64,000 nt of DNA. It comes from an uncultured Planctomycetales bacterium. GTDB lineage: Bacteria; 4484-113; JAFGCY01. Shown one piece after another: positions 3,721-62,515 of this stretch (position 1 is the first letter of the stretch; each line of letters opens with the position of its first letter). Made by a program: the position numbers and the translations under genes. The stretch covers positions 15,704 to 79,703 of the forward strand of contig CAZEJB010000014.1 of assembly GCA_964512635.1 (NCBI GenBank). Direction: 5' to 3'. The notes below the pieces were generated by a model, which was given only the letters and a program-made list of their open reading frames with translations, had not been told where the DNA came from and searched no databases.

Positions 3721-4312
3721 CAGTTCCTCCTTGGAGAGCAGCAGTCGGCCACTTGGTATGCCGGCCTGCCGTGACACGGGATAAAGCCTAGCATGTGCGG
3801 ACCCGTTGCGGCGTCTGCGCCGAGGCGCGCGCTGCCCGCGGGCAGCGTTCAACAAGCTCACAGACGGGCCGGCCGGCGCAGTGGTTACCGGACAGCCCCG
3901 CTTCAGGGGCCTACAGCAGCCTCCAAAGCGTCCGAGAACGCGCATGCAGGGATAGAGCCGCGCGGGGCAGGGGAGGTAACGGGCCAGTGCGCGGACGATC
4001 CGTCCGCGTTTGTGTATTTTCCGGGAGTGCCGGGCCAGGCCCGGCATTTTTACCGGAACGCCGACCCGCCGCGCTTGCATCTCTTCCCGGAGCGCCGGTC
4101 GACCGACCGGCTTCCTGTCCCCCACGGCCGGCTGCAAGCCGGGCTCTTGCCCTGGGGCGCCAGCCATAGGCTGGCGTCCTCTCCGGCTGTTACAATCCCC
4201 GCAGATGTCCACTGCCCCGCAAAACCGGCAGCACAGCTCCGCAGGCCGCGCCGCGCCACGTCCGGTGGCACCGGCTTGCAACCGGTGGGTTTTCGCGGCT
4301 GCGCCGCGTGCT

Positions 4313-4425
4313 GGAGCGCCGGCTTCAGCCGGCATCTCCTGGGGAGCGCAGACTTCAGCCGGCATCTGCTGGGGAGCGCAGACTTCAGCCGGCATCTGCT
4401 GGGGAGCGCAGACTTTAGTCTGCAT
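4313..4425. repeat. Tandem of four GGAG-type REP-like palindromes (about 30-bp period)
   Basis: GGAGCGCCGGCTTCAGCCGGCAT, 2x GGAGCGCAGACTTCAGCCGGCAT, GGAGCGCAGACTTTAGTCTGCAT. Relatives at about 25155 and 27847-27902. Confidence 0.8.
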
Positions 4426-4486
4426 CTTCAAGCAGCGCGGACATCTTGCCCGCGTCGCCCGCTCGCGCGGATCGCGTAGCCGGCCG

Positions 4487-6094
4487 GTCATCATTGCCGG
4501 CGGGACCAACGACTGGCAGTGGACCAAGATCACGCACCAGGTTGACGCAATCGGGCGCACCAGCGACAGCAACTACCGCCAGTGGTTGAATGGCGGCAGC
4601 GAGCCTGCCGGTGATAGCCTGCAGCATGTCTACGACCAGGCCGGGCGGATGGTGCAGAACTACGACGGCACCTCCGCGTACGGCGCGACTTGGCGCTGGG
4701 CCGGCGCGGCCAACAGCCACAATGGCCCGCTCTGGGGTCCGGCTGCGGATACCTCCAGCCAGGTCAACCACAATGTTGCTGCGGGCAGTTTCAAGGGCAT
4801 CCCGGTGCGCCGTAGCTTCAGCCAGCCGACAGTCGAAGGCGACAAGCGTGAGCTCTTCGGCCAAGGCCGCCCACAGGCCAAGGACAGCGTGAGCAGCTGG
4901 CACCTCGGCATCCAGTCCGGCCCGCAGCCCGCCTCGCTGCAAGGCACTACTACCAGTCGCTTCAGCTTCATCGGCACCGTCGCCGCGACCGACATGAGCC
5001 GCGCGACCGACAGCCGTGAAGCCGGCCGCATCGGCATCTTCGGCTCTGCGCTGAGCTATGGCGGGAGCTATGGCCGTGTGACGAACGAGGCGATTGGTAG
5101 GGATGTAAATCCGCTTGGAAGGAGTGGAGGGTTCGCTCTAGTAGGCGGTTCCCAGAATTTTAACAGAATCTCCGCCGTCATACCCCTTACCATTAGAAAA
5201 GGTATGGGCAGCGGTAACTCGATTAATAATGATGGGATGCCGACTCCCGATTGCCCAGACCCAGAATGTGTAGGTGGGGGTACTAAGTACTGGGATAAAT
5301 ACGCAAAATCGGACTGCTGCATCTGGCATGCAAAGGTTTGGGAACATGATAATGAATGGGACCAATGTCTCTGCAAAGTGAGATCGTGCCGTCCCGACAT
5401 CTGCCCTGACTGCAGCTCCAGTGAATGGCGCCATATAACTGAGTGTTGCTATTGTATGGAGTGCAAAGCTCGCAATCGAGCAGATAAAAAGTGTGAGTAT
5501 CCATGCAAATTTGATTGCGCTGGTCCCAAGTGGTGCCAAATGCCTGACGACTGCTACTGCCAAGAGAAGTCAGACGGCGGTTCGGGCGATGATGGAGGAG
5601 ATGGGTTGTGCTGGATCGTAGTACCAGGAAGCAAACAGTTAGGTTCATTTATGGGCGGGTGCTACGTCCCTGGCCCAGGTGAGGAGAATGATCCAGGTGC
5701 TAATCCAGGAGGACAATTGACCTACAAATGCAGCGTCACGGCAACTCAATTGTGCCAGTCAATTCCATGTAAGAGCGGTGGAACCAAGACAGCCTATTAT
5801 GCTGCTGCAGTGAGTTGCACTTGCTTCAATTTCAAGGATACAACCCAAGGCACAGGAACCGTGAGTGTAAACTTGCCCTGCGGGAAGTCATTCTCCCCCA
5901 GCGAAAAGTCGGTGTTTGGCGGCAGAATAAAGAATGTTCTGGGACAAATTCTCTGTCCGTGCTCGGATTTTTCGGGAATCGATGGTGAGCCTCCTCCCAT
6001 TTCGTTGATGGAACGGTTTGGAACGAGGCGTGGTTCGATCACTTTTGTTTCAAACATTTCAAGAGATCTAGGAGGTAAACGGGGATGTTGTTGA
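4487..6094 (+). CDS. Orphan Rhs/YD-like core fragment fused to a Cys-rich variable C-terminal (putative toxin) domain; true start unclear
   Basis: YD-like segments (HQVDAIGR, HVYDQAGR), a DPxG-like boundary (GRDVNPLG), a visible GC drop at about 5080-5110, and about 30 Cys afterwards. Confidence 0.6.
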   Translation, partial: VIIAGGTNDWQWTKITHQVDAIGRTSDSNYRQWLNGGSEPAGDSLQHVYDQAGRMVQNYDGTSAYGATWRWAGAANSHNGPLWGPAADTSSQVNHNVAAGSFKGIPVRRSFSQPTVEGDKRELFGQGRPQAKDSVSSWHLGIQSGPQPASLQGTTTSRFSFIGTVAATDMSRATDSREAGRIGIFGSALSYGGSYGRVTNEAIGRDVNPLGRSGGFALVGGSQNFNRISAVIPLTIRKGMGSGNSINNDGMPTPDCPDPECVGGGTKYWDKYAKSDCCIWHAKVWEHDNEWDQCLCKVRSCRPDICPDCSSSEWRHITECCYCMECKARNRADKKCEYPCKFDCAGPKWCQMPDDCYCQEKSDGGSGDDGGDGLCWIVVPGSKQLGSFMGGCYVPGPGEENDPGANPGGQLTYKCSVTATQLCQSIPCKSGGTKTAYYAAAVSCTCFNFKDTTQGTGTVSVNLPCGKSFSPSEKSVFGGRIKNVLGQILCPCSDFSGIDGEPPPISLMERFGTRRGSITFVSNISRDLGGKRGCC

Positions 6095-20700: not shown

Positions 20701-20961
20701 GGAATGATCCTCCTCGAATGTGCCGGCCGCGGGCCGAGGGGGCAGCCCGGGCTCGTTCGGGCGGGATTTTAGCAGGCGGAATCGGGCGCTGGCCGCGCGG
20801 CGGCAGGCTATAATGACCCTCCCGCGCCCGGGGCAAAAACGGCGCGGCGGAAGCGGACAAATGCGATAGGCGCGCCCGGCGCGGATGCCGGGTAGACTTA
20901 GGTCAGGGCAGGCCGTCAGGGCCGGCCGGAGGGTTGGGCGTAGCCCAGAGTGGAGAGGAAC

Positions 20962-23900
20962 TTGTCCGCGTTTGTCCATCTGCATAATCACAGTGAGTAC
21001 TCGCTGCTTGACGGCATTGCGCGCGTCGGCGACATGGCTGCACGCCTCAAGGCGCTGGAATACGACGCCTATGCACTGACCGACCACGGCGTCATGTATG
21101 GCGCCCTCGAATTCTATCTGGGCATGCAGGCCGCCGGGATCAAGCCGATCATCGGCTGCGAGGTCTATGTCGCCAGCCGTAAGCTGACGGATAAGGACAG
21201 CCAGCTTGACCGCAAGAGCTGGCATTGCGTACTGCTGGCTCAGAACGAGACGGGCTACATCAACCTGATGCGTCTGACCTCGATCGCGCACCGCTTTGGC
21301 TATTACTACAAGCCGCGGGTCGACGTCGAGGCGATCCGGGCGCACAGCGAGGGCATCATCTGCCTCACCGCCTGCCCCAACGGCGTGGTCGCCGGTCCCT
21401 TTCATGGAAAGGCGATGGGGGACGAGGGCCACGAGTCCGAGAGCCGCGCGTCGCAAAGCCAGGGGCCAGGCAGCGGGCTGGTCGGCGGCGGGCTTGATGG
21501 CGCCGACAACGAATGCGAGGCTGGCGGGGTTACGGCGGCACACGAGGCCGCGGCACGCCGCGCGCTCGAAACCTATCTCGAAATCTTCACACCCGAGCGC
21601 TTGTTCCTGGAGATCCAGAACCACGGCATGGACATGGAACGGGCCTACAGCCCCTGGGCCGCGGATATGGCCCAACGCTACGGTCTGCGCCTGGTCGCGA
21701 CCAACGACTGCCACTATGTGGCCAAGGATGATGCCCGGGCCCACGATATCTGCCTGTGCCTGCGCGACAAGAAGCTGCTCAGCGACGAGGACCGCCTGCG
21801 CTACAGCGGGCCGGAGTATTACATCAAGACCCAGGCGGAGATGGCCGAGCTGTTCGGCGCCTATCCGCAGGCACTTGCCAATACCAGGGCTGTCGCTGAC
21901 CTGTGCAACCTGAGTCTTGACCTCAAGCGGGTCTACTTCCCGCAGATGGAAGTGCCGATCGTAGGGGCGAGTCCTGACTCGCCATCTTCTGCCGTAGGGG
22001 TGGGGCTTGTCCCTACCCGTGATGGCGGTGCCGAAGACGGGCGGGATCAAGCCCAAGCCCCTCAAGTCGGAACGGAAGATGGGCGGACACAAGGTCCGCC
22101 CCTACAGGAAACCACCACCGATCAGGCCGCGCAGGATGCCTGGCTGCGCCATCTGGTCCACGAGGGTGCGATCCGGCGCTATGGCAGCATCAGCTCCGAG
22201 CTGCAGGAACGAATTGACTATGAACTTGGCGTGATCATCCCCAAGGGTTTTACGACCTACTTCCTGATCTGCCACGACTTTTGCGACTTCGCCCGCAGCA
22301 AGGGCATCCCGGTCGGCCCCGGCCGTGGTTCCGCCGCCGGATCGGTGGTCGCCTATTGCCTTGAGATCACCGACCTGGACCCGATCAAGTACGGCCTGTA
22401 CTTCGAGCGCTTCCTCAACCCGGAGCGCATCGAGCTGCCGGACGCGGACATCGATTTCTGCTACCGCCGGCGCGATGAGGTGATCGAGCACGTCAAGAAC
22501 AAGTACGGTGCGGACCGGGTTGCGATGATCATCACCTACAGCCGCCTGAAGGCCCGCGCGGTGATCAAGGCGGTCGGCCGCACCAAGGGCATCGCCTTCC
22601 AGTACACCGATAAGGTGACCAAGGAGATCAACGGCCTCAACCCGACCATCGACGAGGCCATTGAAGGCAGCAAGGTGCTGCAGGAGATGATCCGCTCGGA
22701 CAAGGAAATCGCCGAGCTGGTCGAGGATGCCAAAAAGCTGGAGGGAATCGCGGCCTACCAGTCCGTGCACGCGGCGGGTATCGTCATCGCCCCCAGCGAG
22801 ATCAGCAACTACGTCCCGGTCCAGCCGATCAAAGACAGTGATCTGCTGGTGACCCAGTACAGCATGGACTATGTCCCCAAGGCTGGTCTGGTTAAGTTCG
22901 ATTTCCTCGGCCTGCGTAACCTGACGATGATTGAGGACACGGCGCAGTACATCCGCCGGTATGTCGACCCTAGCTTCGACGCCCGCTTTGTCCCTGAAGA
23001 CGACCCTGAGACCTACGCCATGCTGCAGCGCGGCGACAACTACGGCGTGTTCCAGTTTGAAGCGCCGCAGGTGCGCCGGATGCTGATCGACGGCCGGCCG
23101 GAGAACGTGATCGACCTCGCGGCGATCAACGCGGCCAACCGTCCCGGTCCGCTGCAGAGCGGCGGTACCGCCCAGTACCTTGAGGCCCGCAAGGCCGGCA
23201 AGCAGAGCCAGGCGCGCTTCAAGAGCATCGCGACTATCCTTGAAAGCACCGGCGGCGTGCTGCTGTTCCAGGAACAGGTGCTGGAGATCGCCAAGCAGCT
23301 CGGCGGCTTCAGCCTCGGCGAAGCGGACCTGCTGCGCAAGGCGATGGGCAAGAAGAACATGGAAGTCATGCTGGCCCAGAAGGAGAAGTTCCTGGCCGGC
23401 GCCAAGCGCATTGCCGACGAGGGCGGTGCCAGGATCCCCACCCAGGAACTGGAAGACATCTGGCAGATGATGGAGACCTTCGCGGGCTATGGATTTAACA
23501 AGGCCCACTCGGTCTGCTATGCCTGGATTGCCTTCCAGACGGCTTACCTGAAGTGCCATTATCCGCACTATTTCATGTGTGCGATGCTCAACAGCTACCT
23601 CGGCAATGCGGCCAAGCTGGCGCAGATTCTGGCGCAGTGCCGGCGGATGAAGATCCAGGTGCTGCCGCCGAGTGTTAATGACGGCGAGCTGGAGTTTACG
23701 CCGACCGCCACCACGGGGATGGGCGAGATCGGCTCGATCATCTTTGGCCTTGGCGGTATAAAGGGCCTGGGCTCTGCGGCGGTCGATGTGATCCTGGCCG
23801 AGCGCCAGCGCGGCGGTGCATTTGGTGACCTGACGGACTTCTATAAGCGCACGAAGAGCAGCGCGCTGAATAAGAAGGTGCTGCAGAGCCTGGCCTGCGC

Positions 23901-25113
23901 CGGCGCCTTTGACTGCCTCGAGCCGCAGCGCAGCAAGCTGATCCAGCGCCTCGACGATATTGATGTCTTCCTGCGCGGGCCGGAAAAGCAGTTCTCGATG
24001 TTTGACGATTTCAACGCCTCAAGCGAGAACGATAGTGTGCTGCCCAGCAAGGAAGTCACGCGTATCGACATCGCGATGCTGGAGAAGGAAGCCATTGGCC
24101 TCTTCCTCACCGAACATCCCTACGCCGACCACCCGATGTTCTTTGACGACCGCTATGTCCAGCTGGAGCGCCTGCAGGAACTGGTCAACGAAAACCCGGC
24201 ATTCTGGCAGGAACGCCCGCTGCCGGCCAAGGGAATTGTCGGACTGCTGACCAATGTGACGATCCGCATGGCCAATACCAGCAACAAGCCTTTCGCCAAG
24301 GCACGGCTTGAAGATCCGGAACGCGGCGTCGAGCTGGTCATCTGGCCGCGCACACTGGAAGCCGCCCGCGACCTGGTTACTGAAAACAACCCGGTGATTG
24401 TCTGGGGCAAGGTCCAGACGCCGGATGTTGCGGCTAGCGCCGAGCAGGGCGACGAGAGCGAAGCTTTTGAGGCGATCGAGATCATCGTCGAAAAGGTCGA
24501 GCAGTACATCCCGCCACCAGGTGGGATTACCCCACGCGGCGACCGGGAAGAGCGCAGCGCAGCACCCCGCGAGACAACGTCCGCCGCGCGAAATCCCAGC
24601 CGGCTGGCCGATCTGACGGCCAGCGACCTGGCTGCGGCTGAGGCGGTAATGCAGATATCGGATAACGCTGCAGCGGGGGCCAGTCCGGCGCCCGTCCCTG
24701 AGAGCAATCAGGACCACTTGCCGTCCTCGCAGACGCGGCTGCGGCCTGTCCTGCGCCGTGTTGATGCAGACTCGGCAAGCTTCGAAAGCGCCGATGCCGC
24801 TCAGGAAGGAAGTTCATCGCCGTCGCCGGGCCAGTCCGCCGAGGCCGCCGATGAACTGGGCAAGGGTCTTGGCATGATCACCTGGTCTGTCGACCTTAGC
24901 CAGGCCGATGCCGCCGCGCTGAAACTGCTGGCGAATACCCTTGAGCGCACCGAAGGTGAGCAGGAGGTCCGCATGCTGCTAAAGGATGTCGGCGGACAGC
25001 TGCGCCAGATCCGCGTGGGCCAGCGCTTCTTCATCGACGCCCAGCAGGCCGAGGCCATCGAACAGCAGTTCGGCTTCCTGGAACGCATACAGCGCGGCCA
25101 GCCCCAGGCCTGA
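20962..25113 (+). CDS. dnaE: DNA polymerase III alpha subunit with several in-frame insertions
   Basis: FVHLHNHSEYSLLDG, TDHG, GRGSAAGS, PDADIDF, HAAG, KFDFLGL and FNKAH, plus an OB-fold. TTG start after GAGAGGA. Confidence 0.96.
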   Translation: MSAFVHLHNHSEYSLLDGIARVGDMAARLKALEYDAYALTDHGVMYGALEFYLGMQAAGIKPIIGCEVYVASRKLTDKDSQLDRKSWHCVLLAQNETGYINLMRLTSIAHRFGYYYKPRVDVEAIRAHSEGIICLTACPNGVVAGPFHGKAMGDEGHESESRASQSQGPGSGLVGGGLDGADNECEAGGVTAAHEAAARRALETYLEIFTPERLFLEIQNHGMDMERAYSPWAADMAQRYGLRLVATNDCHYVAKDDARAHDICLCLRDKKLLSDEDRLRYSGPEYYIKTQAEMAELFGAYPQALANTRAVADLCNLSLDLKRVYFPQMEVPIVGASPDSPSSAVGVGLVPTRDGGAEDGRDQAQAPQVGTEDGRTQGPPLQETTTDQAAQDAWLRHLVHEGAIRRYGSISSELQERIDYELGVIIPKGFTTYFLICHDFCDFARSKGIPVGPGRGSAAGSVVAYCLEITDLDPIKYGLYFERFLNPERIELPDADIDFCYRRRDEVIEHVKNKYGADRVAMIITYSRLKARAVIKAVGRTKGIAFQYTDKVTKEINGLNPTIDEAIEGSKVLQEMIRSDKEIAELVEDAKKLEGIAAYQSVHAAGIVIAPSEISNYVPVQPIKDSDLLVTQYSMDYVPKAGLVKFDFLGLRNLTMIEDTAQYIRRYVDPSFDARFVPEDDPETYAMLQRGDNYGVFQFEAPQVRRMLIDGRPENVIDLAAINAANRPGPLQSGGTAQYLEARKAGKQSQARFKSIATILESTGGVLLFQEQVLEIAKQLGGFSLGEADLLRKAMGKKNMEVMLAQKEKFLAGAKRIADEGGARIPTQELEDIWQMMETFAGYGFNKAHSVCYAWIAFQTAYLKCHYPHYFMCAMLNSYLGNAAKLAQILAQCRRMKIQVLPPSVNDGELEFTPTATTGMGEIGSIIFGLGGIKGLGSAAVDVILAERQRGGAFGDLTDFYKRTKSSALNKKVLQSLACAGAFDCLEPQRSKLIQRLDDIDVFLRGPEKQFSMFDDFNASSENDSVLPSKEVTRIDIAMLEKEAIGLFLTEHPYADHPMFFDDRYVQLERLQELVNENPAFWQERPLPAKGIVGLLTNVTIRMANTSNKPFAKARLEDPERGVELVIWPRTLEAARDLVTENNPVIVWGKVQTPDVAASAEQGDESEAFEAIEIIVEKVEQYIPPPGGITPRGDREERSAAPRETTSAARNPSRLADLTASDLAAAEAVMQISDNAAAGASPAPVPESNQDHLPSSQTRLRPVLRRVDADSASFESADAAQEGSSSPSPGQSAEAADELGKGLGMITWSVDLSQADAAALKLLANTLERTEGEQEVRMLLKDVGGQLRQIRVGQRFFIDAQQAEAIEQQFGFLERIQRGQPQA
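21961..22105. repeat. Four GTAG-type REPs (two forward, two reverse) inside the dnaE coding sequence
   Basis: GTAGGGGCGAGTCCTGACTCGCC (21961), GTAGGGGTGGGGCTTGTCCCTACCC (21994), a degenerate unit at about 22039, and GGGCGGACACAAGGTCCGCCCCTAC (22081). Confidence 0.85.
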
Positions 25114-26013: not shown

Positions 26014-27666
26014 TTAGATGTCTCCGCCGATGCCTTCGTCATGACCTCCGGGGTCGTCGTCGCCGGGATCATCATCACCCGGATCGTCATCACCTGGGTC
26101 GTCGTCACCTGGATCGTCATCACCTGGATCGTCATCACCTGGGTCGTCATCGCCGGGATCATCGACGCCAGGATCGTCATCGCCCGGATCGTCGTCACCC
26201 GGATCATCCACGCCAGGGTCGTCGTCGCCCGGATCGTCATCGCCGGGATCGTCCTTCAGGGTATCCGGGTCGAAGTGCTTGCCCTTGGGTGCACTGAAGT
26301 ACCACGCCGGGCTGGGCTCGGGGCCGGTCGGGCTGTTGATCCAGTCCACCCAGGCTTGAAAGCCGCTGTAGACGTTGAAGATCGACTCGCCCTCCAGCGG
26401 CCAGGCAAAGGTTGCCGGCACGATGAAGCCCAGCGGCACGCCCTTAGCGTCCACCGGGTCGCCGGGCTTCTGCCAGAGGCCCAGGCGGTACTCAGCGGCT
26501 TCTCCGGGCTTGACCAGCAGCTCAGGCTTGTACGGCAGCGGGGTATAGCTGCCCTGGGCCAGCGGCGGGTTGAAAGTCAGGGTTACGATGGCATAGTCGC
26601 CGGCGACCGGCGTAGTGCCCGCCTTGACGTTAGCGCCCCAGCCACCGGGGCTGGAGGGCAGCGCCTCAGCGGTGGGCGCGAAGACCGGCAGGCTGGTTCC
26701 GTCTATGCTGGTCCAGACGCGCTGGTCGAAGTGGCGCTGGTCGTTGGTATGCACCGCGTCGCCATTGTCATAGAACTGGTCGACCGTGGCAAAAACCCTG
26801 CTGCCGGGGAAGGCCCCGCCAATGTTCAGCTGCCAGTTGCTGGCATAGCCCGCGCCGCGCGCCAGGGCCTTGACCAGCAGGTTAATCTGCACCAGGCGGC
26901 CCTGCTTGTCGCGCAATTCTTCTGCGCGCAGCGAGCCGACATAGTCATTGAAGTCATAGTCGCTGCCGCCGTCCTTGACGTCCTCCCAGACCATCTGGGC
27001 CTGGCCGGCGTCGCTGCCCTGGGGATAGACCAGCGGGTCGGCGGTCGGCGTGGCGCTGAGGGCAAAGTCGAGGCTGAAGAAGTCGCCGGGCAGCAGCGGG
27101 CTGGCCGAGCCGTCCATGTTAAAGGGCAGCTGATAGCTGAAGACCGCCGTGTACTCACCTGTCGAGGAATGCTCGACGTCCCGCTCGACATAGCTCAGGC
27201 CGGCGCCGCGCACGACCCAGAAGCGGTCCAGCACGGTGCCGGCGGCCGCCTCATAGCAGACGTGCAGGTCGACCATGTCGCCGCTGCTGAAGGATCCGTT
27301 AGCCTCCCCGGGGACGGCTGCCTCGCCGTGGGCGCTGATGGCCATCCAGAGAAACTTGAAGCTCTCTCCGGCGGCCAGGGCCGAGCCGCGCCGCAGCGGC
27401 TTGAAGCTGACGGCTGCGCTGGCCGGGGCAAGCTGATATGCGCCGGTGCTGCCAGCAGCCTGAGTTGCCGCTTGCAGTGCGCTGGTTCCATGGCTGAGCT
27501 GCAGTCCGGTCTGGAATTTCAGGTTCAGCGCGGTCGAGCCATCCCCCGGCTTGGGGTTCTTGGGGATGTTGATCGGGGCGCCGTTATAGCCCCCGCACGA
27601 GGTCAGCAATAACACCAGGGCGGCCAGGGCGAGCAGCGCCGGCCGCGAAGCTGATTTGGGAAACAA
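26014..27666 (-). CDS. Lipoprotein with a LruC/DUF4842-like domain and an acidic DDPG-repeat tail
   Basis: LTSC lipobox, WED...DYDFND motif, P..F.WPLEG..I..VY..F..W. TTG start after GGAGG. Confidence 0.75.
   Translation of the reverse strand: MFPKSASRPALLALAALVLLLTSCGGYNGAPINIPKNPKPGDGSTALNLKFQTGLQLSHGTSALQAATQAAGSTGAYQLAPASAAVSFKPLRRGSALAAGESFKFLWMAISAHGEAAVPGEANGSFSSGDMVDLHVCYEAAAGTVLDRFWVVRGAGLSYVERDVEHSSTGEYTAVFSYQLPFNMDGSASPLLPGDFFSLDFALSATPTADPLVYPQGSDAGQAQMVWEDVKDGGSDYDFNDYVGSLRAEELRDKQGRLVQINLLVKALARGAGYASNWQLNIGGAFPGSRVFATVDQFYDNGDAVHTNDQRHFDQRVWTSIDGTSLPVFAPTAEALPSSPGGWGANVKAGTTPVAGDYAIVTLTFNPPLAQGSYTPLPYKPELLVKPGEAAEYRLGLWQKPGDPVDAKGVPLGFIVPATFAWPLEGESIFNVYSGFQAWVDWINSPTGPEPSPAWYFSAPKGKHFDPDTLKDDPGDDDPGDDDPGVDDPGDDDPGDDDPGVDDPGDDDPGDDDPGDDDPGDDDPGDDDPGDDDPGDDDPGGHDEGIGGDI
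26048..26253 (-). repeat. 15-bp coding tandem repeat, 14 x (D/V)DDPG
   Basis: Counted from the translated ORF. Confidence 0.9.
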
Positions 27667-28584: not shown

Positions 28585-28818
28585 AATGATGATTGAAGAT
28601 TGCTGATTGATGATTTTCATGAGCGCTGAGCATGAGCCGTCAGCATGCTGCCTGCCAGCAAAAAATTATGGGTGCGTAGAGCTCGACGTCGTTTTGGGCA
28701 AAAGGTTGATCGGAAGCAGAACGACCTCCATCCAACTCGGTACTCCGGACAATCAGCAATCAGCATTCAGCATTCAGCATAAGGCACTCAGCATAAGGCA
28801 CTCAGCACTCAGCACTTC
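28585..28818. repeat. 7-bp tandem arrays
   Basis: GATTGAA/GATTGCT/GATTGAT at about 28590 and TTCAGCA/TAAGGCA/CTCAGCA at about 28755-28815. Confidence 0.7.
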
Positions 28819-33208: not shown

Positions 33209-33835
33209 GTAGGGGCGGGGTAGTATCCCCGCCCCGGTGGAGCCTGCTAGCAGCTGACTAAAGCAGTCCCTGGCGCTTGAGGTGCCAGCGCAGCGGGTTG
33301 CTGACCACATACTGGCGATGGAACTCAAGGTCCTTTTCGCCGTCAAGAGAGCTATCCCAAAACCCTGGTTGCCAGAATTGCCCATCGTAAGGTGGCCAGC
33401 CAAGCTCCCTGACACCAACTCCGTACTGCTTCGTACTGTGGCGCTTGAAGTTACCGATTACGGCTGACAAGTCGGGGCGCTGAGGGAAAACCTCAAGATG
33501 TGGATGCGTGAGTCGGGTTTCGACAATGCCAAGCACTGCATGGAAGTGGTCAGGCATGACAATGTGACAGTCAAGAACCAGTCCCGGATTATGTTCTGGC
33601 ATGGCCAGCCAGATCTCCTCGATTTTCCTGCCGATTGCGTTGAGCTCCAGGCTTCCTTCTACAATTCGTCCAAACAGTGGCCTGCGCTCTGCCAGGCAGA
33701 CTGTCACGAAGTAGTTGCCACGCGTGTAATCTATGCGAGGGTCACGCATCGAGTTGCGGCTGCGATAGTCCCTAGGATCTTCAGGCATCGTGCATTGTAG
33801 CCAACAGCCGGGCGGGGATGCTACCCCGCCCCTAC
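33209..33835 (-). mobile_element. RAYT locus: transposase gene between inverted GTAG-REPs
   Basis: GTAGGGGCGGGGTAGTATCCCCGCCC at 33209 and a near-identical reverse copy at 33810-33835. Confidence 0.85.
33258..33788 (-). CDS. REP-associated tyrosine transposase (RAYT, Y1/HUH)
   Basis: NYFVTVC, VMPDHFH (HUH), FKRHS, FWQPGFWD and QYVVSNP (catalytic Tyr). Confidence 0.9.
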   Translation of the reverse strand: MPEDPRDYRSRNSMRDPRIDYTRGNYFVTVCLAERRPLFGRIVEGSLELNAIGRKIEEIWLAMPEHNPGLVLDCHIVMPDHFHAVLGIVETRLTHPHLEVFPQRPDLSAVIGNFKRHSTKQYGVGVRELGWPPYDGQFWQPGFWDSSLDGEKDLEFHRQYVVSNPLRWHLKRQGLL

Positions 33836-34089
33836 AAGAAGATAAAGTGGGCTCTTGCTGTGCAAGCAGCCCGGAGATCCGCGCCAAGAGCAATGTCGCC
33901 CGAAAGAAGCGTGGGTCGCTGGCCAGGATTCTTCAACTCCCAGCGATATGCTTCGACCAACCTAATACAATAGGCGCCTTGTCGGACAGACCCACAGTTG
34001 ACCCGCCGGGAAGCGGGAATACGGGACAAAGTCCCGCGCTCCAACCTGAGCAGCCGGCCGGCTCGCCGCGGCGACTGCGTCTCCCGCCC

Positions 34090-40040: not shown

Positions 40041-40155
40041 AGAGCGCGGGACTGTGTCCCGTATCCCTGGTCAGCTTCGCATTGTCAGGATTCGTGCTTA
40101 TTCCAAGTCTCAGTGTCCTTTAAGGACGAAGAATACGGGACACAGTCCCGCGCTC
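40041..40155. repeat. Inverted GGAG-type REP doublet
   Basis: AGAGCGCGGGACTGTGTCCCGTAT, then ATACGGGACACAGTCCCGCGCTCC. Confidence 0.8.
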
Positions 40156-40157
40156 CA

Positions 40158-41177
40158 TCAGAGGAGCTTCATCATCTCCCGGGCCAGCATACGGTTAAGG
40201 CGGTGGCCGCTGCGAAATGCTGTGACACGCCCGCTCCACTCCGCCGGCACGATATAGAGATCACCGATAAGGTCCAGCACCTTATGCCGCGCGTACTCGT
40301 CGGGGAAGCGCAGGGGACTGTCGGGGACCATCTCGGAGCGCGGACGATCCGTCCGCGAATCTTCAGGGAGCGCGGGACTGTGTCCCGTATCTTCGTCCGG
40401 AAGCGGACCACTGGTCCGCGCTCCGGTCTGCGGACTTAAGTCCGCGCTCCCAGCAGGCCGGATCACCAGCGCGTCCTCGCTGTGCGTGTTCTTCAACAGT
40501 CCCGCTGCGCTCAGCGCCTCGCCTTCGCGCTGAGTAATGAAGGTCCGCGCCGGGAGGATGCCGTCGACTGCCCACTTTCTTGTGATGTCACCAAAGCAGA
40601 CTCGCTGCTCTCCGAGTTCAGGATGACTGAAGGAGTAGTCGATGCTCAGTCGATAATCGGTTATGTCGCGGTTTCGTTCGATCAATATGTAGCTGCCATT
40701 CTCATCTTCGACCCTCAACTGCTCTACTGGCAGAATGGGTCGGTTTGCCGCCATGTACTCCACTCCCGCGGACGCGATCTCGTCATAGAGCGTCCTGGCC
40801 GAACCGTCGTGATTCGGCAGTTCAGTGCCGTTGTCCACCACAATGCGGCAGTGGTCGATGCCGGCGGCCCAGAGCGCGCAAAAGACATGCTCAATCACCA
40901 GCAGGGGCGGGCCGCCCTCGCCGGGCGGGAGCAGGGCCGTACAGTTGGGCAGCTCGAGGTAGCGCTCAGGCAGGGCGGGGTAGCGGTAGCCCTCGTGTTC
41001 AATCAGGATGCCGTGCGCGGCAAACTCCGGCGTGCTTTTCTCGACGTCGTAGGGGATTCCCCCGCGCTCGCATTCCTCGGGCGACAGCGCCGGGCGGATC
41101 TTGCAGGAACACTTGCTGCCAGAGAACAAACCCCTGCCAGAGAGGCCGACGCCGTGCTTGATGGTAGCTGAATGCAT
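40158..41177 (-). CDS. lpxC: UDP-3-O-acyl-N-acetylglucosamine deacetylase with an in-frame REP-derived insert
   Basis: G.GL.SG, IEH..CAL...GID, ELP..DGSA, I..ARTF, RF.DE..RHK.LD.IGDL and SGH.LN. Confidence 0.9.
   Translation of the reverse strand: MHSATIKHGVGLSGRGLFSGSKCSCKIRPALSPEECERGGIPYDVEKSTPEFAAHGILIEHEGYRYPALPERYLELPNCTALLPPGEGGPPLLVIEHVFCALWAAGIDHCRIVVDNGTELPNHDGSARTLYDEIASAGVEYMAANRPILPVEQLRVEDENGSYILIERNRDITDYRLSIDYSFSHPELGEQRVCFGDITRKWAVDGILPARTFITQREGEALSAAGLLKNTHSEDALVIRPAGSADLSPQTGARTSGPLPDEDTGHSPALPEDSRTDRPRSEMVPDSPLRFPDEYARHKVLDLIGDLYIVPAEWSGRVTAFRSGHRLNRMLAREMMKLL
40335..40451. repeat. Four GGAG-type REPs inside lpxC
   Basis: Units at 40335, 40367, 40402 (reverse) and 40429 (reverse). 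The second is essentially identical to the intergenic REP at 40041. Confidence 0.88.
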
Positions 41178-41265
41178 CGCAGCTAGTTATAGATGATGGC
41201 GGATGGCGGATGGCGGATGGCAGAGATGGAGGAATGAGGGTAGGGGCGCACGGCGTGCGCCCGGC

Positions 41266-41688
41266 TCACTTGACTAGTCTGATTGGCAAGCCCAATCCCT
41301 GAACTGACTCAACAAACTCTTGACGACCTCGGTCGGGCAACGATGCTTCCCACCAAGGCAGAACGTAACTTGAATGCGATTGCATAGGGTTATCGGGCAA
41401 TAGGATCGATCGATATCGGTAGTCAATGTCAGAGAGCGATTGTCTGAAGACAACATAGTCGGGCGATGTCTTATCCGAATAGGACGTTATGGCCTCTTCG
41501 AGCAGACGTCGGACGTCAAGGTCAAACATCAGTTCATCATAAATGTCGCCATAGCCAGATTCGCACGTCCCGACAAGCCTGTCCCATCCTTGCAATAGAT
41601 CCCACACAGCCACTGGCCGTCCATAACTCACCACAGTTCTCCAAACGAACTCTGCAAAAGGACCGTTTCGAAATTCTAGTGCCTTCAT
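41266..41688 (-). CDS. Low-GC hypothetical protein carried between inverted REPs
   Basis: 140-aa ORF with a GGAG RBS; AT-rich compared with the flanks. Confidence 0.6.
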   Translation of the reverse strand: MKALEFRNGPFAEFVWRTVVSYGRPVAVWDLLQGWDRLVGTCESGYGDIYDELMFDLDVRRLLEEAITSYSDKTSPDYVVFRQSLSDIDYRYRSILLPDNPMQSHSSYVLPWWEASLPDRGRQEFVESVQGLGLPIRLVK

Positions 41689-41815
41689 TTTGTGTGAATC
41701 AACTCCTCGAAATCACTCCGCAGCGCAAGCTATACGCCGGGCGCACGCAGTGCGCCCCTACATGTCTTCCCAGCGCCACGTTCCATCTGCCATCTGACAT
41801 TTGCCATCTGCCATT

Positions 41816-44815
41816 CTATGAGACCAGCTCCTTCAGCAACTCCCTCAGACTGAGTTGCGCGCTCGGCTTGACCTGGCTGGGGTCGGAGATGTCGCCAAAG
41901 ACGTCGTCGAAGAGGCCCTGCTTCTCTTTTAACATCTTCAGCAGCTTCTCCTCAACCGTGTTGCGGCACAGCAGGTTGATCACCACCACGCTGCCCTGCT
42001 GGCCCATGCGATGCGCGCGGGCGACGCGCTGCGCCAGCTTGGCCGGGTTAAAGGGCAGGTCGTAGTTGACCACCAGGCTGGCCGCCTGCAGGTTCAGGCC
42101 GGTGCCGCCGGCGTCAGTGCTGATCAGGATACGGCTCTTGCCCTCCTGGAAACGCTCGACCAGCTCGCGGCGGCCCTGGGCATCCACCCCGCCGTGCAGG
42201 AAGGCCGGGGCATAACCCGCAGCCGTCAGCTCGCGCAGCAGGATCTCGCCCATTCGCGTCCACTGGGTGAAGATGATCGCCTGGCGATCCAGCGTGCGGA
42301 TCTCGTCCTCAAGGATTGCGTTCAGCTCCGTGAGCTTCTGGCTTTCGCGCTGGCTCGGTTCGATCAGCTCCGGCGTGTCACAGACCTCGCGCAGGCGTTG
42401 CAGCAGGGTCATGGCGTTGTTGGTCGCCAGCTTGTCCCACTGCTCCTTGCTGAGCAGCATGCTGGTCTCGCCCTGCAGGTCCTTATAGAATGCGCGCTGG
42501 ATGTCGGTCAGGCTCAGCCAGCGCTCCATCTCGATCAGCGGCGGCAGTTCGGTGAGCGTCTGGGTCTTTGTGCGTCGCAGGGTCAGGGCCGCGATCTTGC
42601 GGCTGACTTCCTCGACCTTCTGATAGCCCTGGATGCCGCCGAAGCGGTCGAGGATCACGTAGCGGTCGCGGAAGGCCAGCGGGTTGGCGCCGAGAGCCCT
42701 GGGCTCGATGAACTTCATGATGGTGTAGAGCTCCATCAGCTGGTTCTCCAGCGGCGTACCGGTCAGGACAAACAGGTAGGGGCTGGCGAGGCTGAAGACC
42801 GACTGCGCGGTCTTGGTACGGAAGTTCTTGACGCGCTGGGCCTCGTCAAGGATCAGGATGTCGGGGGCCAGGGCCTTGAGCTGCTCGATATCGCGGTGGA
42901 CCAGCTCGTAGTTCACGATGTAGAAGAAGGGCATGTCCGCCGGGTCGTGGAAGATGCCGGGGAGCTGCTGCGCCTTGCCGGATGCCCTGGCATCCGCCTT
43001 GCCGGGCGGGCTGGCCAGGATCTGGTCCAGCAGCGCATCGGCTTCATCGCGCGCGCTGGCCTTCCTGGCCGCACGACCTGCCGGGGCAGGAGGGTCTTTA
43101 GCCTGCTGCGCCGCCGCAGCGCCTGTGGCGCGATCAAAGACTGCCGCCGCCCGATAGATCGATTCCCGCTCGTCCGGCCCGCCGCCAATAACCTCGCAGC
43201 GCAGTCCGGTGAAGCGCTGGATCTCGGACTGCCACTGGTACTTCAGCGAGGCCGGGCAGACAATCAGCGCGCGCTTCAAACCCTGCTTCTGTTTCAGGTA
43301 GAAGGCGGCGGTCATACTCTGCAGGGTTTTGCCGAGGCCCATGTCATCTGCCAGCAGGGCCCGCCGGTTGCTGACCAGAAAGGCCACCCCTTCGCGCTGA
43401 AAGGGGTAGAGCTTGGCTTTCACCGGCGTATCAGAATGGAGCGCGGAGTCTTCGGTGGGGCGGCCGGGCCGCTCAGAATGGAGCGCGTCTTCGGTGGGGC
43501 GGCCCTCAGTGGCCGCCTTCTTCTTATTCTCTGGCTTTGGCAGTCCCCACCACCAAACCCACTTATAGCCCTGTTCATTCGGCCAGCGCTTGTGAGGATT
43601 ATTCAAGATGTACTGCGCTTTCTCGAGAAGTTCGTCATCGTCTCGCATTATCCTATCGAGATACTCATCTTGCCAAAGGGACCCCACATAGCCTAACTCC
43701 TTTTGTGCAGTGTGGGCCGTAAATGATTTCCAGGAATGGACAACGTCCTCAAGGTAGTGCCCGGGCATAGGTTGCATGAGAACATGAACATGGTCGTCCA
43801 TCACGACGTAAGCAAAGAGGTGGTAACGCTGAGTGTCAAAGTGATGAATGGCACTGGCCACCAAATCACGGGCAGCTGGGCTCAGAGTTTGGTGCTTTTT
43901 GTTCAGCCTCCAGGTTACAAAGTAAGTTGAGTTACTTAGACGCCAGTGGGGAAGTCGGTGCCGATATTGAGAAAAATCGTCTTTGGCAGCTGGGATGGCG
44001 GCCAGTGACGGCCGCCCCACCGAAGAGTCCCGCGCTTCATCCTCGGCGCCCTCGCCGGCGATCCACTGTTCAAGCTCCTCCGCCAGCGTCTTTAGTCCCT
44101 CATAGTGATCCAGCACGGGCTTCACTGTTGGGTGTATGCGCACCTGCGCGCCGGCGACGTGCAGCCTGGCGACCAGTTCGGGGCAGTCCAGGGGCTGGCG
44201 CAGGGTATGCACCTGGTCGATATGCGCGGCAAGAATGCTGTGCAGTTCCGGCAACAGGAACTGCTCGGCGTGATAGGCCTGCACCTGGCGGAAGAAGGAA
44301 ATCGACTCTTCGAAACTGATCGCCCGGGCGCCGAACTCCTTCAGGGCCAGAGTGAAGCCCTTGTCGAAGCGCAGCTGGCCCTTGGCCCGGCGCAGCAGCT
44401 TCTCCAGGCGCCAGACATCAAAGTTGTCCCGCAGCGCTCCTTCCGTGCAGTACTCGCGCAGCAGGTTCTGCAACGGCCTGGCCGCCTCATGCGCCGGTGC
44501 GCTGACCAGGAAGCGCACTGACTGCGGCCCTTCGATGCCACGCTGCTTAGCACCGCTGAAGAGCACCACATAGCGCTGCATATGCGCGTCATAGGCCTTC
44601 TGCAGCGCTTCCCAGTCAGTGCCGGCAAAGAAACGGTCCGCCCGCGCGTCGCCGAGTTCTGCCAGCAGACTGGGGTAGGCCGAGTAGTCGCTGAGCGCAA
44701 AGCCGAAGCTGAAGTACTGGTTGATGATCCGGCGTATGTGCGGCGGCAGGCGCTGCTTGTCACCGCTGAAGCGGATCTCATCGCCGTTCTTGCCACCAAC
44801 TACCAGACGCGCCAC
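41816..44815 (-). CDS. SNF2-family helicase/ATPase with an internal RAYT transposase domain
   Basis: YPFQREG, LADDMGLGKT, LDEAQRVKN, LTGTPLEN, IFTQW and GG.GLNLQ.A..V...D.P.NPA...QR.ARAHRMGQ. Confidence 0.92.
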   Translation of the reverse strand: MARLVVGGKNGDEIRFSGDKQRLPPHIRRIINQYFSFGFALSDYSAYPSLLAELGDARADRFFAGTDWEALQKAYDAHMQRYVVLFSGAKQRGIEGPQSVRFLVSAPAHEAARPLQNLLREYCTEGALRDNFDVWRLEKLLRRAKGQLRFDKGFTLALKEFGARAISFEESISFFRQVQAYHAEQFLLPELHSILAAHIDQVHTLRQPLDCPELVARLHVAGAQVRIHPTVKPVLDHYEGLKTLAEELEQWIAGEGAEDEARDSSVGRPSLAAIPAAKDDFSQYRHRLPHWRLSNSTYFVTWRLNKKHQTLSPAARDLVASAIHHFDTQRYHLFAYVVMDDHVHVLMQPMPGHYLEDVVHSWKSFTAHTAQKELGYVGSLWQDEYLDRIMRDDDELLEKAQYILNNPHKRWPNEQGYKWVWWWGLPKPENKKKAATEGRPTEDALHSERPGRPTEDSALHSDTPVKAKLYPFQREGVAFLVSNRRALLADDMGLGKTLQSMTAAFYLKQKQGLKRALIVCPASLKYQWQSEIQRFTGLRCEVIGGGPDERESIYRAAAVFDRATGAAAAQQAKDPPAPAGRAARKASARDEADALLDQILASPPGKADARASGKAQQLPGIFHDPADMPFFYIVNYELVHRDIEQLKALAPDILILDEAQRVKNFRTKTAQSVFSLASPYLFVLTGTPLENQLMELYTIMKFIEPRALGANPLAFRDRYVILDRFGGIQGYQKVEEVSRKIAALTLRRTKTQTLTELPPLIEMERWLSLTDIQRAFYKDLQGETSMLLSKEQWDKLATNNAMTLLQRLREVCDTPELIEPSQRESQKLTELNAILEDEIRTLDRQAIIFTQWTRMGEILLRELTAAGYAPAFLHGGVDAQGRRELVERFQEGKSRILISTDAGGTGLNLQAASLVVNYDLPFNPAKLAQRVARAHRMGQQGSVVVINLLCRNTVEEKLLKMLKEKQGLFDDVFGDISDPSQVKPSAQLSLRELLKELVS
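43431..44020 (-). mobile_element. RAYT domain with inverted GTGG-type REPs, inserted in frame in the SNF2 gene
   Basis: RHRLPHW, TYFVTWRL, VMDDHVH (HUH), WKSFTA, LWQDEY.DRI.R and QYILNNP. REPs at 43494-43517 and 43997-44020. Confidence 0.9.
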
Positions 44816-47278: not shown

Positions 47279-47725
47279 GGAGCGCGGACCCATGGTCCGT
47301 ATCTTCTGCGCTGCGACAAGCCAATGTGGTGCGGGGATCAACCACAAAGATCACAAAGGTTCACGAAGAACACGAAGAGTAGGAATAGAGCCTGGAAGCT
47401 GCCTCTGAGCTGTCATTCTGATGTAGCCAAGGGGGCTGGCAGAGTCTTAGCCTTAGTGCTCTTGGTGCTGCTTGGTGGGCCTGATGTTGAGAAAAGCCAT
47501 GTCCAGCTGTTCTGCTTTGCGTTCTTCGCGAGCTTTACGCTGTGATCTTTGTATGGCAGGTCCGGGACGGCCGAACTGGGGTAGGGGCGCACAGAGTGCG
47601 CCCGGCATTTGGCTCGCTGCCCAGAGCAGCGAATGACAATACCAATCCAATTCGCGGCCCCGGTAGGGGCCGGGCGCACGCGGTGCGCCCCTACAAGGCA
47701 AAAACGGACCATGGGTCCGCGCTCC
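47279..47725. repeat. Nested repeat array: a GGAG-REP pair enclosing a 9-bp array pair and a GTAG-REP doublet
   Basis: Outer REPs at 47279 and 47702-47725; 9-mers at about 47342-47376 and 47515-47550; GTAG doublet at 47581-47694. Confidence 0.8.
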
Positions 47726-49077: not shown

Positions 49078-49352
49078 GGGTCAAGTCGGAAGGCGAAAGG
49101 CGCAAGGTGAAAGGACCAAGACAGCAGAAGCTAAAAGGAAGAAAGATCGAGAGAAGGCAGAACAAGGAGTTAGGAACCAGGAACTTGAGAACAGGGATCT
49201 AACAAAGAGGTAGTGGTACGTGGAGCGCCTGCGCCAATCCCTGCATTCGGTTTGAGCCTGGAAGACGAGCGTGCCTATTGCCGCGCTGCTACTCTTCCCC
49301 TTCGACTTTCGACATTCGACTTCCGCCTTCCGCCTTGAGCCTTTCGCCTTCT
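49078..49352. repeat. Inverted pair of degenerate 7-bp arrays
   Basis: AAGGCGA-like purine-rich units at 49080-49200; TTCGACT/TCCGCCT units at about 49295-49352. Confidence 0.65.
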
Positions 49353-53258: not shown

Positions 53259-53711
53259 GTGGAAACTCCTGATTCAACCCTGCGCGACATCACCGCTCTG
53301 GTGGACAACAGCATGGCTCACGCCACTGAGTGCCTGAAGAAACATGCGGCCTTTGTCCCCTTCAGCGTGGTCATCATGCTGGATGACACCTACCGCGTCT
53401 ACTCCAGCAGCCGTGACCAGACTGCCGGGGACTATCAGGAACTGCTGGGGCAGATGGCCGGCCTGTTAGGCGCCGCCTACGAGAATGGCCAGATCCGGGC
53501 CAGCGCCCTGGGTGTCCGGGTAGCAGCGCAGATGACACCGGGAGAGCTGCACCAGGACACTCTGCTGCTTGAGCTTGAGCATCTGGACGGCTCGGCGATG
53601 AAGTACTTCATCCCGATCGAAAAGCCGGTCTTCGGCGCGCCGCGCCTCGGCAAGGCTGTGGCTGCCCCGCATAAGCGCCGCTTCGTGCCCGACCCGGGCC
53701 AGGATGGATAG
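53259..53711 (+). CDS. Hypothetical protein
   Basis: Host-like codon usage; TATGAT-N6-GTG start. Confidence 0.6.
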   Translation: METPDSTLRDITALVDNSMAHATECLKKHAAFVPFSVVIMLDDTYRVYSSSRDQTAGDYQELLGQMAGLLGAAYENGQIRASALGVRVAAQMTPGELHQDTLLLELEHLDGSAMKYFIPIEKPVFGAPRLGKAVAAPHKRRFVPDPGQDG

Positions 53712-53717
53712 AGGCAT

Positions 53718-53910
53718 GTAGTGGCCCACTGCGTGCGCCTTGGAGCCTGATCCGTGTAGAGGCGCACTGCGTGCGCCTTTCCTAAATCCTCAGAAGGCGC
53801 ACGCGGTACGCCACTACAAAGACCACGGACACGCCGGTCATTGCGGCAGGAAAAGGGCCGCATTTCTGCGGCCCTTGTATCAATATTCTCCATCTGCCAT
53901 CTGCCATCAG
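53718..53910. repeat. GTAG-REP cluster, terminator hairpin and 7-bp array
   Basis: REPs at 53718, about 53756 and 53795-53817; AAGGGCCGCA..TGCGGCCCTT at about 53853; CCATCTG units at about 53890. Confidence 0.7.
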
Positions 53911-60914: not shown

Positions 60915-61345
60915 GAAATGGCGGATGAAGGATGAAGGATGACGGATGAAGGATGACGGATGGCGGATGACGGATGGCGAATAGCTGATGGTTGATGGCG
61001 GAGGGCTCATTTCGGAGGACGAATGGCAAATGGCGAAGGGAGAGGCGCGTGGAGCGCACCCGGGCAGGCAGTCTGCGAGCTGCTGGGTCATGAGTAGGGG
61101 CGCACAGAGTGCGCCCGGCCCATCGCGATAGGCTGGATTTGGATGACAAGTTGGCCTTGTATCAAAGCGGAGCTAGTCATTAGCGATCCGAAGCGTTCAA
61201 TATTGTTGCCGGGCGCACTCTGTGCGCCCCTACGCCTCTTCGTTGTGGCTCTGCATAGGGTTACCCGTACACGCTCCACGCGCACCTGTATCCCCATTCG
61301 CGTTCCGCCAATTAGCCATTAGCCATCAGCCATTAACCATTCGCC
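60915..61345. repeat. Inverted 7-bp arrays enclosing a GTAG-REP doublet
   Basis: GATGAAG/GATGACG/GATGGCG units; REPs at 61094 and 61211-61233; CCATTAG/CCATCAG units. Confidence 0.8.
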
Positions 61346-61363
61346 ATCAGCCCTCCGCCATTT

Positions 61364-62323: not shown

Positions 62324-62515
62324 ATGAGCAGCATAGCAGGGGAGATGCTGGATGCTGGATGCTAGCTAGGAGCTTTGAGGAGACTCGACGCGGTCCGTAC
62401 ATTGATCGGGATGGAGTATTGCGGAACTTGTGTCCTTGCCTTTTTTCACTAGCATCCAGCATCTGGCATCCAGCATCTTCCCAATTCCTTGCAGTCATAC
62501 TGACATGATGCTAGA

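Follow-up and report, generated by a model that had tools for sequence, protein, structure and literature searches.

A predicted orphan immunity gene between the arms of a REP dimer at the SNF2-lpxC junction of an uncultured Planctomycetales bacterium

Background

REPs and RAYT transposases are among the commonest bacterial repeats, and their mode of movement, and whether any gene carriage by them occurs, are still unsettled. Among the described structures close to the locus analysed here is the REPtron, a tnpA-REP (RAYT) gene flanked by REPs (Nunvar 2010; Ton-Hoang 2012, PMC3333891; Di Nocera 2013, PMC3733652). REPs also occur as head-to-head dimers, for which spacers of 20-100 bp have been published; they commonly lie within 20 bp of gene 3' ends, and their presence within replication and repair genes has been reported (Di Nocera et al. 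2013, PMC3733652). Dimers of this kind are known as REPINs or BIMEs (Bertels and Rainey 2011, PMC3116915; Di Nocera 2013), and REPINs are thought to be copied together with their spacer as one unit. According to passages of Ton-Hoang et al. 2012 (PMC3333891), TnpA-REP of E. coli cuts and rejoins single-stranded REPs in vitro, and REP/BIME units could sequester whole genes; the same passages state that the mechanism of movement is unknown.

Here we describe a REP dimer that encloses a gene other than a transposase gene. It lies in a 64,000-nt stretch of DNA (hereafter, the window) from an uncultured Planctomycetales bacterium, and it was compared with the orthologous junction of three related genomes and with REP-bearing loci of metagenome contigs.

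Results

Layout of the locus

The intergenic region downstream of an SNF2-family helicase gene and upstream of lpxC reads, from left to right at 41195-41814, as a heptamer array, a REP, a minus-strand ORF of 140 aa (ORF140), a second REP and a mirror-image array. The left array, (GATGGCG) x3.9, occupies positions 41195-41221 of the plus strand (TRF, 100% matches), extends imperfectly to ~41232 and is separated from the lpxC start codon by 18 nt. The left REP (REP-L; 41240-41265, plus strand) is a 26-nt unit of the class that we call B, with GTAGGGGCGCACGGCGTGCGCCC at 41240-41262; it is composed of a GTAG tag on the outer side, the stem GGGCGCAC, the loop GGC, the stem GTGCGCCC and a GGC tail. 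ORF140 (41266-41688, minus strand), the predicted orphan polymorphic-toxin immunity gene, is the sole ORF between the arms, and its TGA stop lies 0 nt from the REP at 41240-41265. Its leader of 47 nt (41689-41735, minus strand) is part of the same low-GC insert and contains GAGGAG 14 nt upstream of the ATG. The sole promoter-like match in the region overlaps the ORF140 start codon, and transcription of ORF140 would probably be by read-through out of the SNF2 gene. The right REP (REP-R; 41736-41761, minus strand) is again a 26-nt class-B unit, inverted relative to REP-L. It is followed by the right array, (CCATCTG) x4.6, at 41783-41814 of the plus strand (TRF), the unit of which matches the reverse complement of the left unit except at one position; this array ends 1 nt from the SNF2 stop codon.

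Both arms have GTAG, a perfect 8-bp stem and a 3-nt loop, as expected for GTAG-tagged REPs, in which a 5' GT[AG]G precedes a palindromic stem-loop of 20-40 nt and which occur as many dispersed copies, most of them intergenic. Together they form a head-to-head dimer with the GTAG tags outside, which is the type described by Di Nocera et al. 2013 (PMC3733652). A repeat finder paired the two REPs as arms that are 96% complementary and 470 nt apart, and the outer array regions as 44-nt arms that are 73% complementary. The DNA between the REPs has 49% GC, compared with 62% for the window. The preliminary description of this DNA had reported a symmetric composite of arrays and REPs around a single 140-aa ORF at 41190-41815, and this layout is borne out, with an inter-REP length of 470 nt.

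Class-B REPs are strongly overrepresented in the window. The sequence GTAGGGGCG occurs in 10 copies (0.49 expected), always as a plus copy followed by a minus copy, and the hairpin GGGCGCACnnnGTGCGCCC has 7 matches (0.13 expected). Class-B REP copies in the window number six, and further dimers lie at 47581-47694 (spacer of 62 nt between 26-nt units) and at 61094-61233 (88 nt). Outside the window, the same REP was found on >120 metagenome contigs; the five that were inspected range from 49 to 70% GC. A hairpin census detected several GTAG-REP classes in the window, most of them in dimers whose GTAG tags face outwards. At 21961-22105, a 1387-aa ORF (20950-25113, plus strand) for a putative DNA polymerase III alpha, judged from its translation, includes three in-frame GTAG REPs, two forward and one reverse.

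Comparison with known systems

The locus resembles a REPtron in having a single small gene between inverted GTAG-tagged REPs with the tags outside, ~520-630 bp overall. True REPtrons are present in the window at 33209-33835 and in the relative L006 at 3991-4622. In the former, REPs at 33209-33234 and 33810-33835 flank a free-standing 176-aa RAYT gene. The preliminary description had presented our locus as a mirror of this one; the likeness holds for the REP arms only, since the RAYT locus is devoid of heptamer arrays, and its REPs, with the hairpin GGGGCGGGG..., are of a class other than B. Unlike the product of a REPtron gene, ORF140 is not a Y1 (HUH) transposase and has no Pfam or NCBIfam match. 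Moreover, no RAYT flanked by REPs of the class of its arms was found within the 64-kb window; class-B REPs do flank RAYT ORFs in the loci L111, L032 and L043.

Two inverted REPs of the same class in an intergenic region also recall the REPINs and BIMEs (Bertels and Rainey 2011, PMC3116915; Di Nocera 2013). Unlike in a REPIN, the spacer here is 470 nt long and protein-coding; the orthologous dimer in the closest relative, with 24 nt, does have the short spacer of the published dimers. In addition, class-B spacers (24, 62 and 88 nt; 20-95 nt in metagenome loci) have no sequence relation between copies, in contrast to the copying of dimer and spacer as one unit that is assumed for REPINs. The locus fits the gene sequestration by BIMEs that passages of Ton-Hoang et al. 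2012 (PMC3333891) propose for codA-cynR of E. coli, where whole genes are enclosed via TnpA-REP recombination. The genes considered in those passages are resident neighbours, whereas here the gene is foreign and an empty dimer is available in a relative, which gives polarity.

A MITE or a transposon with terminal inverted repeats would be expected to have a target-site duplication and multiple near-identical copies. No direct repeat was seen at the outer borders of the unit, the gene-bearing unit is single-copy, and the array units vary by locus. Integron cassettes (attC) and IS200/IS605 elements share with our locus a promoterless single-gene unit, folded palindromic bounds that are recognised in single-stranded form, and an HUH/Y1 enzyme family nearby. 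In IS200/IS605 elements, the hairpin ends are on the same strand and tnpA is inside the element. Unlike in these elements, the GTAG tags here lie on different strands, and the arms enclose no tnpA.

The REP dimer is older than the gene

The gene downstream of ORF140 is lpxC (40158-41177, minus strand; Pfam LpxC, E = 4.9e-46), and the upstream neighbour is the SNF2-family helicase gene (41816-44815, minus strand), which matches SNF2, Helicase_C, Y1_Tnp and REP_Tyr_transpos (74 bits). The order of SNF2-RAYT followed by lpxC is kept in all three relatives (L002, L005 and L006), and ORF140 is found in none of them. In the closest relative, L002 (MAG SJ870), the SNF2 core is 93% identical to that of the window, and LpxC shares 82% of the aligned residues (identity of 72% in the top tblastn segment). 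The 155-bp junction of L002 contains GCAGGGGCGCACAGAGTGCGCCCGGC, 24 nt and GCCGGGCGCACTCTGTGCGCCCCTAC, the same REP dimer in the same place without the gene. It has no heptamer arrays, with only CCATACTGCAGCATC preceding the conserved ATCTATAACT at the orthologous site. The flanks conserved between the window and L002 comprise the SNF2 end, CTACCC after the REP, CATCATCTATAACT and the lpxC start (ATG). The junction is reduced to 18 bp in L005 and measures 286 bp in L006, where it contains REPs and arrays and no ORF.

Since L002 has this REP pair at the corresponding position, 24 nt apart, the dimer is older than the gene at this junction, and the gene landed in the dimer spacer. The window and L002 are mutual closest relatives and both outgroups are without the gene, so that a gain in the lineage of the window is the parsimonious explanation. 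The 470-nt insert exactly fills the space between two intact 26-nt REP units. No remnants of the ancestral 24-nt spacer are recognisable at the insert ends, the non-coding spacer being too diverged to tell. The outer flanks and the REP arms are resident, not imported; on the outer side of REP-R the sequence is conserved in L002.

The foreign origin of the gene is also apparent from its composition: GC3 of ORF140 is 0.50, compared with 0.75-0.82 in lpxC, the SNF2 gene, BatA and the upstream binding-protein gene (about 0.75-0.87 for the neighbours overall). The preliminary description had thus rightly called the gene foreign and inserted, and the empty lpxC-SNF2 junction that it suggested looking for is present in L002, L005 and L006. 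It had also considered that the ORF might be syntenic in relatives without REP arms; the opposite is seen in L002, where synteny extends to the REP arms and the ORF is missing.

ORF140 belongs to an unnamed conserved family

ORF140 alone gave no matches in Pfam, NCBIfam, PADLOC or the sequences of the PDB, and a word-indexed search for homologues returned only the self-match (7 matches with a profile). An exhaustive HMMER search was required to reveal the family, which comprises 118 representatives at E <= 1e-3, the best of them 38% identical to ORF140. Members are acidic helical proteins of ~135 aa (nearly all 110-145 aa) with a median pI of 4.73 (4.75 for ORF140); those with names are annotated as "hypothetical protein", mostly from Streptomyces and Actinopolyspora. 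In the family alignment W35, R60, D89, W112 and W113 are invariant and G45-Y46 and E52 are near-invariant, and all of these residues are present in ORF140. AlphaFold (AF2) with the family alignment gave a compact helical model of ORF140 with a pLDDT of 92.5, in comparison with a poor model (pLDDT 45) from the single sequence. Pfam searches with 60 family members produced stray matches only, the best match of the family profile in the PDB (a gas vesicle protein, E = 0.037) is not credible, and a Foldseek search of the good model against the PDB and BFVD found nothing below E = 1.

Thus, ORF140 is a real, intact gene of an unnamed conserved family; the earlier statement that no family is recognised does not hold. 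Two other origins were considered for the ORF. A chance ORF is ruled out by the conserved family and the kept invariant residues, and a decayed RAYT by the lack of similarity, with no match to Y1_Tnp or REP_Tyr_transpos.

The family is associated with a polymorphic-toxin domain

Nine distinct contexts of other family members were viewed, and a toxin gene is upstream in four of them (L003, L134, L008 and L130/L131). In L003 the family gene directly follows the gene for a protein of 1320 aa that combines ALF repeats with a pretoxin-HINT (PT-HINT) domain, and in L134 it is located 2 nt downstream of a gene for a 2888-aa RHS/YD-shell toxin. In L130/L131 it comes after an orphan toxin C-terminal fragment of 116 aa, itself preceded by an Rhs + PT-HINT toxin with an immunity gene of its own; in L008 it is preceded by a truncated ORF. 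The remaining contexts are stand-alone genes or genes among toxin-antitoxin genes.

The last 70-130 residues of the four upstream proteins are mutually homologous (E 1e-13 to 1e-22). They define a toxin C-terminal domain of ~100-130 aa with the motifs PDMPEF ... GD ... G.FG.R ... G.I.TFF, encoded at L003 5530-5919, L134 4690-4999, L130 4558-4908 and L008 1-213. The proteins to which the domain is fused are of the Rhs, YD-shell or ALF/PT-HINT type, and an ORF140-family gene always follows the domain. Searches of the domain against Pfam and NCBIfam gave nothing credible. The family and its partner toxin domain are therefore both new, being absent from Pfam, NCBIfam and the PDB.

Because family genes are located in four unrelated genomes directly after Rhs/PT-HINT toxins that share one C-terminal domain, the ORF140 family is assigned by genomic context to polymorphic-toxin immunity proteins, presumably paired with this one domain. 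As in known polymorphic-toxin systems, one immunity family goes with one toxin family, and the family genes are positioned right after the toxin C-terminus. The window departs from the latter arrangement: no homologue of the toxin domain was found in its 64 kb, and ORF140 is accordingly classed as a putative orphan immunity gene. Its product is predicted to neutralise a toxin delivered by competitors. The immunity-type character proposed for the cargo in the preliminary description agrees with its pI of 4.75 and with the position of family members behind a shared toxin domain.

A comparable situation is known from the AID clusters (Ross et al., bioRxiv 10.1101/471110; PMC12247911), in which immunity genes gained horizontally without a toxin presumably protect against the toxins of competitors. 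Unlike the AID clusters, which are arrays with recombinases or integrative elements in Bacteroidales, the present case is a single gene in a REP dimer of an uncultured bioreactor bacterium.

Heptamer arrays are a separate class of bracket

Many intergenic regions of the window, and of other metagenomes, are enclosed by two 7-nt tandem arrays in inverted orientation. In the window, pairs without REPs are found at 170-310, 28587-28816, 49085-49350 and 62344-62477, and pairs enclosing degenerate or intact class-B REPs at 53700-53908 and 60918-61362. Elsewhere, array brackets are present at L018 5124-5386, L030 350-560, L037 8492-8957, L039 3013-3183, L097 10844-11188 and L006 9050-9140. The first five have the same array architecture and are unrelated metagenome contigs of 49-70% GC. 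The array units vary between loci, the two arms within one locus match, and the interiors often hold REPs or a terminator-like hairpin. The orthologous junction of L006 shows the opposite nesting, its CACAGAG arrays being enclosed by the REPs.

The preliminary description had included the arrays in the arms of the cassette. This assignment is contradicted by the L002 dimer without arrays, the array pairs without REPs and the reversed nesting in L006, which together define the heptamer arrays as a separate class of bracket and not as cassette arms. At the junction itself, the arrays arose after the split from L002. Target-site duplication is ruled out as their origin, since the arrays are inverted rather than direct. 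Inverted heptamer arrays bracketing intergenic regions thus constitute a widespread feature, for which no description was found in the literature searched on such arrays around REPs or intergenic regions. The window also contains tandem repeats of longer period, namely 30 nt x3.8 at 4313-4427 and 15/45 nt x13/4.4 at 26051-26253, the second of which looks like a coding repeat.

Replacement of a RAYT module within the SNF2 gene

Embedded in frame in the SNF2 gene is a RAYT (Y1 transposase) module, with HVH as the HUH motif and the tyrosine in YILNNP. In the window, the module is edged by 33-nt inverted repeats (43488-43520 and 43994-44026) that are 91% complementary, and its GC3 is 0.57, compared with 0.78-0.87 for the remainder of the gene. 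Corresponding modules were identified at L002 7563-8238, L005 2223-2812 and L006 6771-7488. In all four related genomes the module is at the same site of the SNF2 gene, but the inverted repeats and RAYT subtypes differ; the SNF2 homologues P0007 and P0011 are without a RAYT module. Between the window and L002, the module (Y1 block) is 43% identical, in contrast to 87% and 93% for the flanking domains. The module of the window is closer to that of L005 (62%), and the module of L002 to that of L006 (50%). This discrepancy in identity and the nearer match of the window module to L005 indicate that the RAYT module was replaced, at a fixed repeat-bounded site, since the divergence of the window and L002.

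A palindromic repeat family, GGAGCGCGGGACnnnGTCCCGTAT, was also noted in this region. It has 4 copies in the window (0 expected), at 40367-40390, 40041-40064 / 40133-40156 and 34019-34042, and it also forms the bounds of the RAYT module in L002. The copy at 40367-40390 is contained in a 37-aa in-frame insertion of lpxC that is missing in L002, L005 and L006.

Other cargo between class-B arms

The search for other cargo covered matched class-B arms in 120 metagenome loci and 0.9 Mb of class-B-bearing DNA. No other case of non-RAYT cargo between matched arms was found in it; the long spacers contained RAYTs or a RAYT remnant. The remnant is in the class-B dimer at L012 7997-8213, the 171-nt spacer of which still encodes a RAYT fragment (..MPNHVHML..), suggesting that long spacers may be decayed REPtrons. 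In L028 (4852-5233) a small ferredoxin gene is placed between two REPs of different classes, a look-alike produced by independent REPs. Neither a second copy of the gene cassette nor a close homologue of ORF140 was found in the collections searched, and no REPs were seen beside the other ORF140-family members viewed. Apparent empty-site or circle "joints" in Logan contigs of two bioreactor runs proved to be other loci that share the array or the REP, and not excisions.

Discussion

How the gene may have arrived

We propose, with moderate confidence, that an orphan immunity gene was acquired horizontally into the spacer of a pre-existing head-to-head REP dimer via REP-to-REP exchange. A donor of lower GC would have carried the segment flanked by the same REP class, and recombination at the REPs would have swapped it into the resident dimer. 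The exchange could have involved either i) RAYT-catalysed cleavage and joining of folded single-stranded REPs, comparable to the in vitro activity of E. coli TnpA-REP, or ii) short-homology recombination between the 26-nt REPs. Intact REPs, one complete gene with its stop at the REP, and resident flanks form the picture expected when a REP-flanked donor segment recombines within the REPs. The class-B REP is common to organisms of differing GC and flanks RAYTs in other loci, which further counts for the exchange, and the swap of the RAYT module in the SNF2 gene gives independent support for exchange at repeats. Against it, no donor was found, the nearest ORF140 homologue being 38% identical, and the 64-kb window has no class-B-flanked RAYT, its free-standing and SNF2-embedded RAYTs using other REP classes. 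We also know of no demonstration in vivo of RAYT-driven movement of anything above the size of a REP doublet.

The main rival explanation is break repair at the centre of the palindrome, which we consider rather unlikely. The dimer centre, prone to breakage as a hairpin or cruciform, would have caught a random foreign fragment by end joining or microhomology repair, with no catalytic part for REPs or RAYTs. The position of the insert at the centre of a nested palindrome suits this explanation, and so do the missing cognate RAYT in the window and the lack of a second cargo with matched arms in the 0.9 Mb of class-B-bearing DNA. REP loops are, moreover, known as targets of IS elements. An instance is ISPpu9, which is placed in REPs in passages of PMC12288879. 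Break repair accounts less well for the precision of the insertion: both 26-nt REP units are fully intact, and the insert ends at the natural stop of the gene, 0 nt from the REP, and begins just 47 nt before its ATG. Exactly one whole gene would rarely be the outcome when a random fragment is captured. Spacer remnants, too, were not recognised.

The two further explanations are less likely than break repair. The reading of the preliminary description, that the whole composite of array, REP, gene, REP and array is a non-autonomous cassette moved in trans by a RAYT, seems improbable. It draws on the symmetric arms and on the recurrence of the array-REP...REP-array arrangement at 53700-53908 and 60918-61362 and in L018, L030, L037 and L097; another contig of the same metagenome has a similar array with a class-B REP 585 nt further. 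Yet the REP pair is resident, with a flank conserved in L002, whose pair has neither arrays nor gene and is already in part a stepwise intermediate. The array units differ by locus, arrays also occur without REPs, the nesting is reversed in L006, and with inverted GTAG tags the two ends are located on different strands, which is not so in IS200/IS605. The gene is also present in one copy only, and since neither a second cassette copy nor further non-RAYT cargo between matched arms was found in the DNA searched, it is unproven that the composite moves as a unit. What stands of the earlier interpretation is a foreign immunity-type gene at the place where a REPtron would hold its RAYT, without the arrays as arms. 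Finally, it is very improbable that the gene is ancestral here and was lost in the relatives, or that REPs came independently to each side of an old gene: REPs do build up at gene ends (as at the L028 ferredoxin gene) and the RAYT remnant decaying between the arms in L012 means that inter-arm deletion occurs, but the loss would be required in L002 and again in L005/L006, the GC3 of 0.50 is far from the 0.75-0.87 of the genome, the arms are of the same class and 96% complementary, and the 24-nt spacer of L002 has no gene remnant.

REP dimers as possible gene slots

Returning to REP-to-REP exchange, it could be extended to a more general scheme, speculative and in our judgement doubtful, in which REP dimers of this lineage are exchangeable gene slots and inverted-REP segments are swapped horizontally among genomes sharing a REP class via single-strand cleavage and joining of the RAYT type. 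Two segments would be represented here, namely the immunity gene in an intergenic slot and the RAYT module in an in-frame slot of the SNF2 gene. The same process might give rise to the inverted heptamer arrays that bracket such sites in many genomes, or use them as a cofactor.

Conclusions

At this locus, a REP dimer or REPtron-like structure contains cargo that is not a transposase, and an empty homologue of it survives in a relative. The locus provides a before/after pair, with an empty dimer in the closest relative and one complete foreign gene in the dimer here, and ~2 kb away a RAYT module has been swapped at a fixed repeat-bounded site within the SNF2 gene. With the insert and the module swap, defined substrates are at hand for a direct test of the gene sequestration proposed by Ton-Hoang et al. 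If true, the reading of REP dimers as exchangeable slots would amount to a cassette system similar to integrons in its logic.
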